Notes under the pieces: generated by a model
Told to the model about the DNA's origin: nothing
What the model saw: the letters and a program-made list of their open reading frames with translations, nothing else
Database searches by the model: none
Part shown: piece by piece, positions 27,235 through 32,000 of the stretch
Numbering within the stretch: position 1 is the stretch's first letter
Layout of the letters: each line of letters starts with the position of its first letter
Assembly (NCBI RefSeq): GCF_900199515.1
Contig: NZ_LT963434.1
Location: forward strand, 843,272 to 875,271
DNA length: 32,000 bases
Source: Massilicoli timonensis
Lineage (GTDB): Bacteria; Bacillota_I; Bacilli_A; Erysipelotrichales; Erysipelotrichaceae
Direction of reading: 5' to 3'
Program-made: the position numbers and the translations under genes

Positions 27235-27948
27235 ATGAAACGATTGACACAGGATATTATGATCTGCAATGAATTAAAATATATGATTGCGCACCGGCCG
27301 ATCCGCGAAGGGGAAAAGCTGCCCAGTGAACGAGAGCTGGCGCAGCTATTGCATGTGCAGCGGGCGACGATCCGCACCGGATTGAAACTGCTGATGCAGG
27401 AGGGCTGGATCTATTCCCGCAACCGCAGCGGCTACTATGCTTCTAAGCGCCGCATCATTAAAAATGTATCGCGTCTTGCTTCCACGACACAAGTGATGTT
27501 AAAGGAAGGAAAACTGCTGCGGCTTCATGTCGTCTCGATCAAAGAAGTCGCGCTTCCCCTTGACAAACAGGAAAAAATGCAGACAAAGGAAAAAGCGGCT
27601 TATGAGGTAAAGCGGATCCGGGAAATCGAAGGTGAACCGGTTTCCTTAGAAATCTCTTATCTTCCTAAAACGCTGGTACCGGATTTTGAAACACAGCCGT
27701 TTCATGAAAAGTCTTTATATGGCATCTTAGAAGATCATTATCAGTTTTGGCTGGATCGCTCCGCACAATCGATCTTGGTAGAGCGCTGTGATCGGGAAAT
27801 CGCAGATCTGCTTCAAGTGGAGGAAGGCTGCTTCTTAGTAAAACAGGAGGGGGTCGTATATGATCGAAGCGGACAAGCGATCGAATTTGCGCAAAGCTAT
27901 ATGAAGCCGGATCGTTTCATCTATGAAAGCAGTGGTGAAAGCGAATGA
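27235..27948 (+). CDS. GntR-family (HutC subfamily, UTRA effector domain) transcriptional regulator 1
   Basis: 237 aa. The wHTH is GEKLPSERELAQLLHVQRATIRTGLKLLMQEGWIYSRNRSGYY. C-terminal length and pattern are consistent with a UTRA domain. Confidence 0.85.
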   Translation: MKRLTQDIMICNELKYMIAHRPIREGEKLPSERELAQLLHVQRATIRTGLKLLMQEGWIYSRNRSGYYASKRRIIKNVSRLASTTQVMLKEGKLLRLHVVSIKEVALPLDKQEKMQTKEKAAYEVKRIREIEGEPVSLEISYLPKTLVPDFETQPFHEKSLYGILEDHYQFWLDRSAQSILVERCDREIADLLQVEEGCFLVKQEGVVYDRSGQAIEFAQSYMKPDRFIYESSGESE

Positions 27949-28688
27949 ACAAACAGCCGATGTATATGCAGATACAGCAGGATTTGTTGAAAAAGATCAA
28001 TGACGGCACCTTTCTGCCGGGAGAGATGATTCCCAGTGAACGACAACTGGCAGCACAGTATCAGGTAAGCCGTCTGACGGTGCAAAATGCCGTAAACGCT
28101 TTGGTCGAAGCAGGCAAGCTCGTACGCTCCAAAGGCAAAGGCACCTTTGTGATCAAACGTAATTCCGGCAAATTTTCATGGAACAGTCCTAATACGATGG
28201 GACTAAGCGCCATCTTCAAGGAACGCGGGATCCGTAAGAAAGACAAAGTGCTGATCAGTGATGAAATACCGGCATCTCCTTATCTTGCCGATAAATTAAG
28301 TGTACCTCTGCATACGCCGCTTTTCATTTTAACGCGTATTCGTTGTGCAGACGATGATTCTTTTGCCGTGGAATACAGTTATCTGCCGCTGCACTACTTT
28401 CCTGATATTGCGGAATATGACTATGCCCATGTATCGCTTTATGCATACATGCGCAGCCGCGAACATCTCCCGGTTTCTTTTCGACAAAAGCTCATCATCA
28501 TTGCGGCTGACGAAAAACTGGCGAAACAGTTAAGCATCCCGCTAGGTGATCCGCTTTACTACTTTGAATTTACCGGCATAGATGAAGCAGGCAATCTGGT
28601 CGAATATACCGAAAGCTATATTCGTTGTGACAAAACGACTTTTATCTATGAAGCAATGCGCGACAATACGAATGCTTACATGAAATAA
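27945..28688 (+). CDS. GntR-family (HutC subfamily, UTRA domain) transcriptional regulator 2
   Basis: 247 aa. The wHTH is GEMIPSERQLAAQYQVSRLTVQNAVNALVEAGKLVRSKGKGTFV. The start overlaps the stop of regulator 1 (ATGA at 27945-27948). Confidence 0.85.
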   Translation: MNKQPMYMQIQQDLLKKINDGTFLPGEMIPSERQLAAQYQVSRLTVQNAVNALVEAGKLVRSKGKGTFVIKRNSGKFSWNSPNTMGLSAIFKERGIRKKDKVLISDEIPASPYLADKLSVPLHTPLFILTRIRCADDDSFAVEYSYLPLHYFPDIAEYDYAHVSLYAYMRSREHLPVSFRQKLIIIAADEKLAKQLSIPLGDPLYYFEFTGIDEAGNLVEYTESYIRCDKTTFIYEAMRDNTNAYMK

Positions 28689-28709
28689 AAGGGCCAATCA
28701 GCCCTTTTT
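28687..28709. terminator. Bidirectional intrinsic terminator
   Basis: AAGGGC-CAATCA-GCCCTT hairpin followed by a T5 run. It lies between the GntR-2 stop (28688) and the stop of the minus-strand orphan gene (28726). Confidence 0.65.
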
Positions 28710-28725
28710 ATATGGATGCCTCGTC

Positions 28726-30039
28726 TTATCTTTTTATAGCATGCGCATCAATCATTTCTGCCAATTTATCAGCTCGTTTATCCATGCGTGATACAATGTT
28801 GTCTAACATTTTTTCATAATCGCTTTTATTTATTTTATCAAAATTATAATCTAAGGAAGCATTTGTGAACAGTTTTTTTCCATACAAACGTCCATCCTTT
28901 ACACCAAATTCCTCCTCTAATGCCAAGTGTACTTGATTCTCTATTAAAAACGCTTTCCATCTCTCCAATTCCTTTTTATCCGCTTTCGAAACGATCGCTC
29001 CTCTACAATTAGTTTTCACAAGATTACATTCATTTTCATTAAGCGCAAGTTCGATCAATTCCACAAATAAAGATAACTGATCATGCGCTTCATATTTTTT
29101 GTCCTTTATGATGCATTTGCCGATGCCTTTGTACTGATTCATATTTTGTGGCAGCGGCATCATATTAGAAATTGAATAAACTCGTTGTATCAATACATTT
29201 AATTTAGGAAAGGCTTTGGTCAGCTTTTCCCATTCCCCGACAACTTTTTCATCATGCAGTACATAACGATGTACAAATTCCTTTTTTCCTATTTGATCTA
29301 AATTATACTTTTTATCTGCGTAAGGCAATCGCAATCCGATTTTACAGATTCCCCAAAATGACTGCATAATATCATAATAGCCAAAATCATTCCAATTTAA
29401 TAAACGATACAATTCCCAATTATGCTCTCCCGGCTTTTCCAGATCCTTGCTAATCGGATCACAGTGAAAACGGCAGATTTCTTCCATTGGATCATGGCAA
29501 TGATATTTTTGAGGCAGAAGCGACTGTAAAAAGCATGCCTTTAATACTGCTTTTAAGGCGCTGTTTCGCCAATAAGAACGTAATTGAAAGCGCTCCTGGT
29601 CTGTTTTTTCTAAAATTTGACTGTCACACATTTTTTCACTCGCTTCCTGCAAATACTTCCTATTCAATTTATATTTTTCTGCACATTCCGTAATCGAACA
29701 ACTTTCTTCTAACAGCGCAAACAAGATACATCGCCATCCATCTGCCGTTATTTCCCCGATCTTTTCTTCGTTCAACCGCTTCAATATCTGAAACTGTGCT
29801 TGCGTTAGCTTTAACGCATCCTTTATCTTATATTGTTTTCCCTCACACTGAATGAGTCCTTTTTTCAGTAGTTTTCTCAATGCTTTCTCAACTGTCTCTA
29901 TTTTGTAATGTGTTGGCTTCATTAGATCCATAGTAGAAAAATGCGTTCTTTGTGTATGACACACTTCATTTGACAATACCAACAAAATAAAAAACTCCGT
30001 TTTATTGACTCCCAGATGAACAAACTCTTGAAGCTCCAT
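28726..30039 (-). CDS. Orphan protein: two N-terminal winged-helix-like segments plus a ~270-aa C-terminal region with no recognisable family (AT-rich, probably horizontally acquired)
   Basis: I prefer the ATG at 30039 (MELQEFVHLG, 437 aa), 5 nt after GGAAGTGAGG, over the track start at 30078. Segments such as ETVEKALRKLLKKGLIQCEGKQYKI and SITECAEKYKLNRKYLQEASEKM look like wHTH recognition helix plus wing. The C-terminal part contains a Cys/His cluster, YHCHDPMEEICRFHCDP. GC is visibly lower than in the flanks. Confidence 0.6.
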   Translation of the reverse strand: MELQEFVHLGVNKTEFFILLVLSNEVCHTQRTHFSTMDLMKPTHYKIETVEKALRKLLKKGLIQCEGKQYKIKDALKLTQAQFQILKRLNEEKIGEITADGWRCILFALLEESCSITECAEKYKLNRKYLQEASEKMCDSQILEKTDQERFQLRSYWRNSALKAVLKACFLQSLLPQKYHCHDPMEEICRFHCDPISKDLEKPGEHNWELYRLLNWNDFGYYDIMQSFWGICKIGLRLPYADKKYNLDQIGKKEFVHRYVLHDEKVVGEWEKLTKAFPKLNVLIQRVYSISNMMPLPQNMNQYKGIGKCIIKDKKYEAHDQLSLFVELIELALNENECNLVKTNCRGAIVSKADKKELERWKAFLIENQVHLALEEEFGVKDGRLYGKKLFTNASLDYNFDKINKSDYEKMLDNIVSRMDKRADKLAEMIDAHAIKR

Positions 30040-30058
30040 TTTTTCCTCACTTCCTTTT

Positions 30059-30066
30059 CCCCCCCC
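30059..30066 (-). repeat. G8 homopolymer (C8 on the plus strand) in the leader of the orphan gene
   Basis: Read directly from the sequence: ...TATAGGGGGGGGAAAAGGAAGTGAGGAAAAAATG on the minus strand, 20 nt upstream of the ATG. Confidence 0.9.
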
Positions 30067-30077
30067 TATAACAAACA

Positions 30078-30095
30078 AGGCACCTGTCAGTGCCT
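30078..30095 (-). terminator. Weak hairpin/possible attenuating terminator between the HD gene and the orphan gene
   Basis: AGGCAC-TGACAG-GTGCCT (6-bp stem) followed on the minus strand by TTGTTTGTT. The plus-strand version is followed by a T7 run. Confidence 0.35.
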
Positions 30096-30102
30096 CATTT
30101 TT

Positions 30103-31044
30103 TTACTGTTTCTTCGCAATCGCTTCATCTTCCCACTGTTCGATCAAATGATTCGCATCAGCGATGGAAATCGGTTCCAGTTTTTCGATTTCACTGTAAG
30201 GGGTCGTGATTGCCTGCCATTTCATCATACTTTTCTGATAACAGTAGCTTTCCTGTCCATTGCTTTGATAAATGGTGTCTTTTTCCTTGAAATAGGACAC
30301 GAATAACTCTTTATAAATCGTATTCAGCTCCCAGAACATCGCATAATCCTGAAGCGGCGAAAATGCGTCGATCAGCTTGGAAAAATACCAGCAATGGTGC
30401 TGCTTGCCGCGGTTAAAACGATTCCACACCGCCTCGCCCTCCTGTAAATAATTGGCTTTGGTGCTGCGTAAATTGGCGAGCTTATCGGCGCAGGAAATCA
30501 TCAGATTATCCAGCGTAGCCTTCGTTTCCAAATAATTGACATAATTCTGTTTGCGCTCTTCCCATGATTTCCCCTCTTCCTGCGTACAGTCTTCCACCAG
30601 CATCCGCACGCGTTTGCCAAAGCGCTGTTCCAGCTCTTCTTTGCTTGTTCCCGTATCCTCTAATGTATCATGAAGCAGACCGGCGATGATGACATCTTCT
30701 TCAGCGCCCGCATCCGTCAAGATCTGCGCGACCTCAAAAGGATGCACGATATAAGGAATTTTTGTTCCCTTGCGCATTTGTCCTTCATGAGCGACACAGG
30801 CAAACTGGATCGCCTCATGCAGCTTCATATACTGTTTGGTCGGCGGTGCACCGGACGCATCCTCCTTGCGGATCAAATGCAGCGCTTCCGCTTTGCTTAA
30901 TTCTTGAAAATTCTCTTTGAAGCGCAGGATCTCTCCATACAGATTACACTTCTCAAAGCTGTGCGTAACCTTGGAATAAATAAAGGCCCCTTCTCCCTGC
31001 ACCTTGAAGATACTGCCGGATTCACTCAAATAATAGTTTGCCAC
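30103..31044 (-). CDS. RelA/SpoT-type HD-domain hydrolase (small alarmone hydrolase-like) with extra N- and C-terminal domains
   Basis: 313 aa with a GTG start 7 nt after GGAGG. Motifs: AHEGQMRKGTKIPYIVHPFEVAQIL, AGLLHDTLEDTGTS, RFGKRVRMLVEDCT and CADKLANLRS. Together these are the full motif set of the (p)ppGpp-hydrolase HD fold. Confidence 0.8.
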   Translation of the reverse strand: MANYYLSESGSIFKVQGEGAFIYSKVTHSFEKCNLYGEILRFKENFQELSKAEALHLIRKEDASGAPPTKQYMKLHEAIQFACVAHEGQMRKGTKIPYIVHPFEVAQILTDAGAEEDVIIAGLLHDTLEDTGTSKEELEQRFGKRVRMLVEDCTQEEGKSWEERKQNYVNYLETKATLDNLMISCADKLANLRSTKANYLQEGEAVWNRFNRGKQHHCWYFSKLIDAFSPLQDYAMFWELNTIYKELFVSYFKEKDTIYQSNGQESYCYQKSMMKWQAITTPYSEIEKLEPISIADANHLIEQWEDEAIAKKQ

Positions 31045-31062
31045 TGCTTCCCCTCCTTTTTC

Positions 31063-31098
31063 ATAAAAGGAAAGAGAACCGACAGGCTCTCTTCCTTT
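31063..31098 (-). terminator. Intrinsic terminator after the EF-G-like gene
   Basis: The minus strand reads AAGGAAGAGAG-(loop)-CTCTCTTTCCTT (one bulged base) followed by a T-rich TTTTAT. Confidence 0.55.
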
Positions 31099-31107
31099 TC
31101 CTGCTTG

Positions 31108-32000
31108 TTATTCTTCCATTTCCGCTCTTGCCTGCGCGATCACGCGCTCTGCCAGATTGGCAGGCAATGGTTCATAGCGGTCAAACACCTGTGTAAAGGT
31201 ACCGCGTCCCTGCGTCATTGCCCGCAGCTCGATCGGGTACTTCATCATTTCCGCCATCGGCACATGCGCCTGGATCAACTGATAGCCATCCTGCTGATCC
31301 ATGCCGATGATCATGCCGCGGCGCTTATTGAAATCGCCCATGATCGTTCCGGTATATTCATCCGGCACTTTTACGCTTACCTGCATGATCGGTTCTAATA
31401 AAATCGGATTGGCTTTTGCCATCGCGTCCTTAAAAGCCAGACGTGCCGCCATGATAAACGCCATTTCTGATGAATCGACATCATGATATTTACCGTCCGT
31501 AAGCACCGCTTTGATATTCACCACTTTATAACCGGCAAGCGCACCATGTTCCATACATTCTCGCAAGCCTTTCTCCACTGCCGGGAAGTATTGACGCGGT
31601 ACGGCGCCGCCGAATACTTTTTCCTCAAATACCATTTCTTCCTCGTCTTCATTCGGTGAGAAATCAACGAATACATGTCCGAATTGTCCATGACCGCCGG
31701 TCTGTTTCTTATGACGGCCTTCGCCGGTTACCGCTTTGCGGATCGTTTCCCGATACGGCACCTTCGGTTCTTCCAATAATACCTCTGCTTTATATTTGGC
31801 TTTTAACTTCGCCAAGATCACTTCAATATGCTGATCCCCGACACCGTATAATACCATCTGTTTTGTTTCCGGGTTATTGACGACTTTCATCGTCGGATCT
31901 TCTTCACACATCCGCTGTAAGCCGTTGCTCATCTTATCCTCGTCATTTTTCGTCTTCGGTGAGACCGCCATTGCCAGCATCGGTTCACTGAATTTGATCG
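31108..32000 (-). CDS. Elongation factor G-family translational GTPase, C-terminal ~297 aa (5' end beyond right edge); probably an EF-G paralogue
   Basis: The frame is open to the window edge (..IKFSEPMLAMAVSPKTKNDEDKM). Domains III-V carry GGHGQFGHV, VFGGAVPRQYFPAVEKG and PILLEPIM. The genomic context is not the rpsL-rpsG-fusA-tuf operon. Confidence 0.85.
   Translation of the reverse strand, partial: IKFSEPMLAMAVSPKTKNDEDKMSNGLQRMCEEDPTMKVVNNPETKQMVLYGVGDQHIEVILAKLKAKYKAEVLLEEPKVPYRETIRKAVTGEGRHKKQTGGHGQFGHVFVDFSPNEDEEEMVFEEKVFGGAVPRQYFPAVEKGLRECMEHGALAGYKVVNIKAVLTDGKYHDVDSSEMAFIMAARLAFKDAMAKANPILLEPIMQVSVKVPDEYTGTIMGDFNKRRGMIIGMDQQDGYQLIQAHVPMAEMMKYPIELRAMTQGRGTFTQVFDRYEPLPANLAERVIAQARAEMEE

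Follow-up and report, generated by a model that had tools for sequence, protein, structure and literature searches.

A low-GC gene beside a Rel/SpoT-type hydrolase gene of Massilicoli timonensis is probably an independent accessory gene derived from a mobile element

Does a low-GC gene that lies directly downstream of an alarmone-hydrolase-like gene in Massilicoli timonensis form a module with that neighbor, or did it arrive on its own? The question is raised by a 32,000-nucleotide (nt) stretch of contig NZ_LT963434.1 (positions 843,272 to 875,271; hereafter the window), in which an original prediction, made from the letters alone, had noted an orphan gene for a protein of 437 amino acids (aa) with tandem winged helix-turn-helix (wHTH) segments behind a gene for an HD hydrolase. 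That prediction had proposed a toxin/antitoxin-like or defense module and had kept an independent insertion beside a housekeeping HD gene as its fallback. We favor the fallback. With a probability of about 0.7, the 437-aa gene is an independent, mobile-element-derived DNA-binding accessory gene, because its composition is foreign, its family resides on mobile elements, and linkage to HD genes is absent among its relatives.

The block containing the gene (28726-30078) has a guanine-plus-cytosine (GC) content of 35.6%, compared to 46.3% in the remaining 30.6 kb of the window and a host-like 46.4% in the HD gene. Among all 1353-nt windows of the 32 kb this value is the minimum (mean 45.8%, standard deviation 2.6; ≈3.9 standard deviations below the mean), and the trough, followed in 100-nt steps, spans ≈28.6-30.0 kb. 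GC at third codon positions (GC3) is 34% in the 437-aa gene compared to 48-56% in five neighboring genes, and the isoleucine codons ATT/ATC/ATA occur 9/9/10 times compared to 113/379/23 times in 12 other genes of the window; the codon usage of the 437-aa gene is foreign. In this comparison within the 32-kb window, GC content, GC3, and codon usage agree that the block is compositionally foreign, as had been proposed. A scarcity of GATC had been cited as well. The count of 9 sites in the 1353-nt block is correct, and GATC is the most over-represented tetranucleotide of the window (433 observed versus 123 expected; observed-to-expected ratio [O/E] of 3.5), but once base composition is corrected for, 9 sites compare to 14.3 expected at the host O/E, and the deficit is not significant (P=0.095). 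The reading frame of the sites also differs, being GAT/C in the block versus G/ATC elsewhere. Inside 12 large open reading frames (ORFs) of the window, 220 of 286 GATC sites lie in the frame xxG/ATC; CGAT (O/E 2.6) and ATCG (O/E 2.3) are over-represented, and GAGT, CTAG, TAGG, and TAGT are depleted (O/E 0.10-0.17). This pattern suggests that the organism has a strong, unexplained bias linked to sequence context or methylation.

A word-indexed search of 5.8 billion proteins returned essentially only the 437-aa protein itself, as did the same search with the family profile described below. The self cluster holds 73 sequences on 12 contigs, and the eight places listed share synteny, come from one species, and are at least 99.5% identical. 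An exhaustive phmmer search over 1.84 billion cluster representatives gave 58 matches, two of which are fragments of the same gene. Orphan status was thus borne out in that no close relatives were found beyond the species, but not beyond that, since this last search uncovered homologues at ≈25-35% identity. Four of these relatives are full length (P0123, P0124, P0125, and P0140; 445-459 aa), ≈30 are stand-alone proteins (260-330 aa) whose match is confined to residues ≈160-437, and one (P0134) fuses an XRE-type helix-turn-helix (HTH) to the same C-terminal domain (C-domain). Matches to family members had phmmer E-values of 1e-49 to 1e-10, and the hidden Markov model (HMM) of a 37-sequence alignment (A1) scored 230 bits on the window ORF. 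About 17 other phmmer matches (E-values down to 3.5e-22; proteins of <1,000 to ≈5,900 aa; residues ≈150-215) were discarded as artefacts summed over Thr/Ser/Pro-rich repeats. These repeats (FTLNFTITNL...) we take to be vertebrate MUC16-type SEA repeats, in line with a weak Mucin-16 match in the PDB over residues 152-222.

Six positions are invariant in alignment A1 (K304, D320, W361, L374, F391, and R422), and the window protein has all of them; ≈14 further positions are near-invariant, and the window protein keeps most conserved positions. The shared motifs are FDVINSFW, SFPEKY, ANFMPCP..FN..KG, D(Y/F)LPLMIDKIQ, W..W.I.NR, and G.PLF.GQSL..P.P, followed by a long C-terminal helix ending in R..RA. 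Relative to the consensus, the window protein carries Tyr in place of His288, Ala in place of Gln394, and Lys in place of Pro402. Position 288 is Tyr or Phe in the wHTH-fused subgroup, and position 394 is Ala in the window protein and P0123; the other wHTH-fused members share these two changes in part. Judged by these alignments, the 437-aa protein is a member of a small, unnamed family defined by a ≈270-aa alpha/beta domain. The Cys/His cluster that had been pointed out in this region does occur in the window protein, but the family does not conserve it, and it therefore does not mark a family metal site.

That the ≈270-aa domain belongs to no known family was upheld when the window protein and all 37 family members were scanned against Pfam, NCBIfam, PHROGs, and PADLOC. 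Library matches of the 37 members fall only in their N-terminal DNA-binding parts, which consist of a TrmB/MarR-type wHTH in a few members, HTH_3 in one, and RHH_1 (ribbon-helix-helix, RHH) in one. TrmB matches three to four members of A1 (best E-value 1.3e-7), and faint precomputed TrmB marks lie on P0124 and P0140. The C-domain had no match in these four libraries, in the PDB, or in BFVD; likewise, the A1 profile matched none of the PDB sequences, and a literature search for the family motifs or for "Cmi2" found nothing relevant. One candidate relationship, to NADAR/YbiA-like proteins, was suggested by the motif NFMPCP...KG and was rejected when hhalign of the C-domain profile against a YbiA sequence gave a probability of 0.2%. 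As a kind of finding, a foreign gene that stems from a mobile element is commonplace; the family itself is unnamed and structurally unmatched in the libraries searched, and a confident predicted structure for it, with no counterpart in the domain, defense, and structure libraries searched, is a by-product of this analysis.

The genomic context of the relatives places the family on mobile elements. Scans with A1 yielded one IMG/VR locus and 25 metagenome loci, protein look-ups added more, and the neighboring ORFs were called, clustered, and annotated with Pfam through one representative per recurrent cluster. Conjugation or plasmid hallmarks are present in 16 of the 27 family loci L014-L040, and 8 of the 11 loci that lack them are contigs of ≈5 kb or less. 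A VirD4/TraG coupling protein is encoded upstream of the family gene in eight loci (L015, L018-L020, and L023-L026), and a Maff2/TrbC-like protein, DUF4313, PrgI, and the VirB4 ATPase are encoded downstream (L017, L021, L023, L024, L026, L032, and L039). Other neighbors are MobL or MobA/VirD2 relaxases, DUF3991-Toprim proteins, topoisomerase III, ParA/ParB, and TrbL/VirB6 with an NlpC/P60-lysozyme, and the P0125 gene (L042) adjoins topoisomerase III and two serine recombinases. The family thus recurs beside the coupling protein and type IV secretion system (T4SS) genes of conjugative elements of gut Firmicutes, sometimes fused to one of three types of DNA-binding head. A tblastn search of phage and plasmid collections with the 437-aa protein found nothing; a canonical family member matched one Clostridium plasmid gene, which lies near ParA and is labeled "hypothetical protein" in RefSeq. 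The loci of the full-length homologues have 29-32% GC, which fits the composition of the window gene.

Two observations concern particular relatives. The P0123 and P0125 genes are each followed by an overlapping gene for a protein of 128-129 aa (L014 1867-2253; L042 7685-8074); the two copies are 32% identical (blastp E-values of ≈1e-14 to 5e-17), have no Pfam match in precomputed gene tables, and encode a possible partner protein of family members. The window contains no counterpart of this gene. In L015 (IMGVR_UViG_3300009117_000043), which IMG/VR files as viral, the family gene is surrounded by genes for a VirD4-type coupling protein, a MobL relaxase, and DUF3991-Toprim; this gene content suggests a conjugative element and not a phage.

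The HD neighbor is what it had been taken to be, a bona fide Rel/SpoT-type hydrolase domain protein. It matches HD_4 and TIGR00691 (Table 1), it shows the motifs HEGQMRKGTKIPYIVHP, LLHDTLEDT, and CADKLANLR, and it has more than 1200 homologues. The module idea holds that this hydrolase and the wHTH protein are a toxin/antitoxin-like or anti-phage pair, in which the hydrolase neutralizes or complements the downstream protein, and it draws on the common strand, the 63-nt gap, and a downstream gene without a separate promoter match. However, when 34 family loci of other organisms (312 kb) were scanned with an HMM of 120 HD homologues, every positive control was recovered but no HD_4 gene. In the opposite direction, a scan of HD loci from other species, namely L009 and L010-L012 (59% identity), with the A1 HMM revealed no family member. 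The two genes moreover differ in GC3 (34% versus 56%). Pfam and NCBIfam scans found no RelA/SpoT synthetase domain in the 437-aa protein and gave only weak wHTH matches, and PADLOC-DB 2.0 gave only wHTH/HTH-type matches (Csa3, CasR, CARF-HTH, and control protein) for the window protein and all 37 members.

A comparison with toxSAS/small alarmone hydrolase toxin-antitoxin pairs (reported by Jimmy et al. 2020) leads in the same direction. As in those pairs, the gene directly upstream on the same strand encodes a Rel/SpoT-type HD hydrolase. Unlike in those pairs, the partner lacks a RelA/SpoT synthetase domain, the adjacency is not conserved in the other genomes sampled, and the HD gene is host-like in composition and is paired with a paralogue of elongation factor G (EF-G). 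With homologues that are not linked to HD genes in the loci scanned, no synthetase domain or defense match, and a hairpin between the two genes, the proposed module was not sustained, and we consider it extremely improbable. Lack of linkage between homologues and HD hydrolases is an outcome that the original prediction had itself named as refuting the idea. The tempting combination of an alarmone hydrolase and a DNA-binding orphan would instead be a chance adjacency that arose from a single-gene insertion.

Table 1. Features of the 437-aa gene and its surroundings (positions within the window)
Feature	Position	Strand	Basis
CDS (coding sequence) of the 437-aa foreign protein	28726..30039	-	ORF list; stop codon 28726-28728
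Winged helix 1, residues ≈1-75	29815..30039	-	AF2 (AlphaFold 2): H13-29, H36-43, H47-59, E63-66, E69-72
Winged helix 2, residues ≈80-155	29575..29802	-	AF2: H99-111, H116-123, H127-139, E143-145, E150-153
Alpha/beta C-terminal domain, residues ≈160-437	28729..29562	-	Alignment A1; AF2; common to stand-alone conjugative-element proteins
Shine-Dalgarno-like AGGAAGTGAGG	30045..30055	-	5 nt before ATG; read from sequence
Hairpin AGGCAC-N6-GTGCCT between HD stop codon and foreign gene	30078..30095	-	Terminator scan; RNA fold -16.2 kcal/mol, z=-3.6
Bidirectional terminator-like hairpin between foreign gene and convergent GntR/UTRA gene	28687..28708	.	Terminator scan; both strands -13 kcal/mol, z -2.0 and -2.5
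Rel/SpoT-type HD_4 hydrolase gene, 313 aa	30103..31044	-	Pfam HD_4 1.4e-20; TIGR00691 hydrolase region (positions 1-122) 4.9e-24
SNP-free (single-nucleotide polymorphism-free) island common to window and nine other species contigs	28768..30861	.	Pairwise blastn of window versus L001-L008 and L045

The predicted structure agrees with the proposed tandem wHTH arrangement. An AF2 model computed on A1 reached a predicted local distance difference test score (pLDDT) of 87.8 and a predicted template-modeling score of 0.73, with pLDDT mostly 87-98 in the C-domain; a single-sequence AlphaFold model had a pLDDT of 35. The A1-based model consists of wHTH 1, a linker helix, wHTH 2, and the alpha/beta domain, which ends in a 32-residue helix, and each of the two winged-helix units comprises three helices and a beta-hairpin wing. 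Foldseek matches to multi-winged-helix proteins lent further support, with the winged-helix 2 region resembling the tandem winged-helix proteins SelB and PF0095; these wHTH matches had probabilities of 0.9-1.0 but E-values of only 0.01-0.5. A weak HTH_Cmi2_C match covers residues 78-148. TrmB/MarR-type factors (Pyrococcus furiosus PF0095, PDB 2quf/2qlz; MepR, 3eco) likewise have two N-terminal wHTH units and were matched with Foldseek probabilities of 0.92-0.99, but the window protein falls below the Pfam thresholds of these families and carries an unrelated 270-aa C-domain that is absent from those regulators.

The winged helices also bring up a replication or DNA-processing initiator (a plasmid or phage Rep, or a DnaD-type protein) left as the remnant of a replicon module. 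On winged helix 1, DnaD_N is the best Pfam match (E-value 2.2e-5; 25.0-25.6 bits, varying with the start codon used, against a cutoff of 27), ahead of MarR (1.3e-3; 19.1-19.3 bits against 24.6). For TrmB, the window protein reaches 12.5 bits against 25.6. There are also weak matches to Phage_rep_O and to replication-initiation families of PHROGs, the BFVD matches include Rep and RepL-like proteins at an E-value of 0.08, and homologues occur on plasmids and integrative and conjugative elements. RepA/RepE-type initiators and the DnaD N-terminal domain resemble the window protein in their two winged-helix domains. All of these matches, however, are sub-threshold and concern the generic wHTH only. 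Unlike RepA/RepE-type initiators, the window gene has no iterons, origin-like repeats, or tandem repeats in it or near it, and short homologue contigs show no circular overlap. Moreover, the conserved part of the family is not a winged helix but the C-domain, which mostly occurs without a DNA-binding head inside T4SS operons. We regard an initiator as quite improbable.

On the minus strand, the order of genes is the 3' part of the EF-G paralogue (31108-31980), the HD_4 gene, a 63-nt spacer with a hairpin, and the 437-aa ORF; a convergent GntR/UTRA gene (27945-28688) shares the hairpin on the other side. The ATG at 30039 is the likely start codon of the 437-aa gene, in that AGGAAGTGAGG precedes it, gene callers chose this ATG in 12 metagenome contigs, and homologues begin at the equivalent residue. 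A TTG-started 450-aa version in the ORF list is an unlikely gene by the same three lines of evidence. Both hairpins that had been described as flanking the block were recovered by a terminator scan and by RNA folding. The one between the two genes looks like a terminator of the HD gene, although it could also be an operator palindrome, and in the former role it argues against a joint module. A feature that would favor a module is the reading frame, which the HD stop codon (TAA, 30103-30105) shares with the foreign ORF across an interval of 21 sense codons (30040-30105), so that read-through at this stop would fuse the HD and foreign proteins. Such an in-frame layout has a probability of ≈0.1 by chance, and we take it to be probably coincidental.

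Rather than residing on a conjugative element or plasmid, the window copy is flanked by the chromosomal EF-G/HD and GntR/SIS/phosphotransferase system (PTS) genes, and genes for transfer, replication, or recombination are absent within ±10 kb of it. We propose that a single gene came by horizontal transfer from a low-GC conjugative element or plasmid of a Firmicute and landed between the convergent GntR gene and the terminator of a resident EF-G-paralogue/HD pair, which would make its adjacency to the HD gene incidental. In this genome it is a lone copy that lacks both the mobile element and the 128-aa partner of its two closest relatives. The two winged helices would bind DNA, most simply the control region of the gene itself, and the C-domain would serve as effector or sensor. 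We infer autoregulation because one effector domain occurs in the family alone or behind wHTH, XRE-HTH, or RHH heads. An effector domain found alone or with interchangeable DNA-binding heads is typical of autoregulated mobile-element effectors, such as antitoxins and fusions of anti-CRISPR (Acr) and anti-CRISPR-associated (Aca) proteins. The family could be likened in this respect, and in its location on mobile elements, to Acr-Aca fusions (AcrIIA1) or HTH-bearing antitoxins, but no sequence or fold similarity to known Acr, antitoxin, or defense proteins was detected. The C-domain of the wHTH-fused branch may act by binding rather than by catalysis, since two near-invariant polar positions (His288 and Gln394) are replaced in this subgroup. 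Our best guess for the 437-aa product is an accessory protein of mobile-element origin that regulates its own expression.

The same traits could be read as those of an inert relic, a decaying leftover of a lost mobile element that is poorly or not expressed and has no host function. Consistent with decay, the gene stands alone without element genes and without the 128-aa partner conserved with P0123 and P0125, it lies behind a terminator-like hairpin with no promoter match, and it has lost the consensus residues H288, Q394, and P402. Against decay, the full protein is encoded in 12 contigs, each with an intact 437-aa frame behind a strong Shine-Dalgarno sequence, most of the invariant residues of the family persist, and the replacements of H288 and Q394 are shared with intact relatives. 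In addition, a diverged allele (L044; ≈1% divergence) differs by 3 synonymous and 4 non-synonymous changes in 756 nt, a ratio of non-synonymous to synonymous polymorphism of ≈0.3, with counts too small to prove constraint. We judge an inert relic to be unlikely.

A bolder extension of the accessory-gene reading is one that we put forward tentatively, as unlikely. The ≈270-aa C-domain might represent an undescribed family of accessory proteins of Firmicute conjugative elements that takes part in inter-element or host-element conflict, as an anti-defense or a defense/exclusion effector expressed with the transfer genes, with some members fused to their own repressor-like head and with the window copy captured and possibly domesticated. 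If the C-domain were indeed an anti-defense or exclusion factor, it would be a new player in conjugation biology.

Variation within the species adds a trace of recent history. The 437-aa gene was called full-length in 12 contigs of the species; its frame is broken in L044 and L045, which looks like read error because all genes on those contigs, including the neighbors of the 437-aa gene, are fragmented. The SNP-free island (Table 1) takes in the foreign gene and all of HD except its 5' quarter. Its flanks carry ≈9-10 SNPs per kb, a density at which ≈18 SNPs would be expected inside the island, and they occur in recombinant combinations; L045 matches the window in its left flank and L002/L003 in its right flank. 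This pattern looks like a recent spread of one insertion allele by homologous recombination, which would have carried adjacent DNA along. That the island covers the foreign gene together with most of HD could be taken to favor a two-gene module, but the island ends inside HD, at 30861, and not at a cassette boundary.

Several points weigh against an independent insertion of a DNA-binding accessory gene. The earlier remark that the locus has no integrase and no flanking repeats proved accurate: no integrase was found within ±10 kb of the gene, and repeat scans revealed no direct or inverted repeats around the block above chance. No empty-site allele was seen, with 14 of 14 species contigs carrying the gene, and the insertion event was thus not reconstructed. 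The HD loci inspected from other species number four (L009-L012), and L013, the locus with the closest HD relative, gives no junction information, being a chimeric contig with the Nextera adapter CTGTCTCTTATACACATCT exactly at the breakpoint. A promoter scan found no sigma-70-like promoter between the upstream hairpin and the ATG, so the 437-aa gene may need read-through from HD to be expressed. Only five aligned sequences underlie the N-terminal half of the AF2 model, and the N-terminal Pfam matches are all below gathering thresholds. The fold searches used the full-length model against the PDB and BFVD, in which a distant fold relative of the C-domain could be missed. Finally, the roles given here to the protein, in DNA binding and autoregulation and through its C-domain, are inferred.

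The HD gene has a context of its own. A gene for an EF-G paralogue (692 aa when full length) directly precedes the HD_4 gene, whose product has extra N- and C-terminal regions, both in the window (30103-31980) and in L001 (6854-9937), and the same order recurs in a 77%-identical relative (L013 791-1986). Judged by gene order, the two could be a conserved translation-GTPase/alarmone-hydrolase pair. In L013 (ERZ27236797:k141_190618, ≈1929-1950), the adapter joins the truncated HD gene to an unrelated DAO/Rieske gene fragment. An exact-peptide scan of 185,579 GTDB species representatives with the HD protein gave no close match, the best being a gene of 36% identity in an Acidobacteria metagenome-assembled genome, and so yielded no sister genome or empty site.

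An Rfam scan of 27500-32000 found nothing relevant. On the other side of the 437-aa gene, tandem GntR/UTRA genes (27235-27948 and 27945-28688) overlap stop to start and lie downstream of a SIS/PTS sugar operon, which encodes EIIC-GAT, IIB, IIA, and a PRD-regulator.

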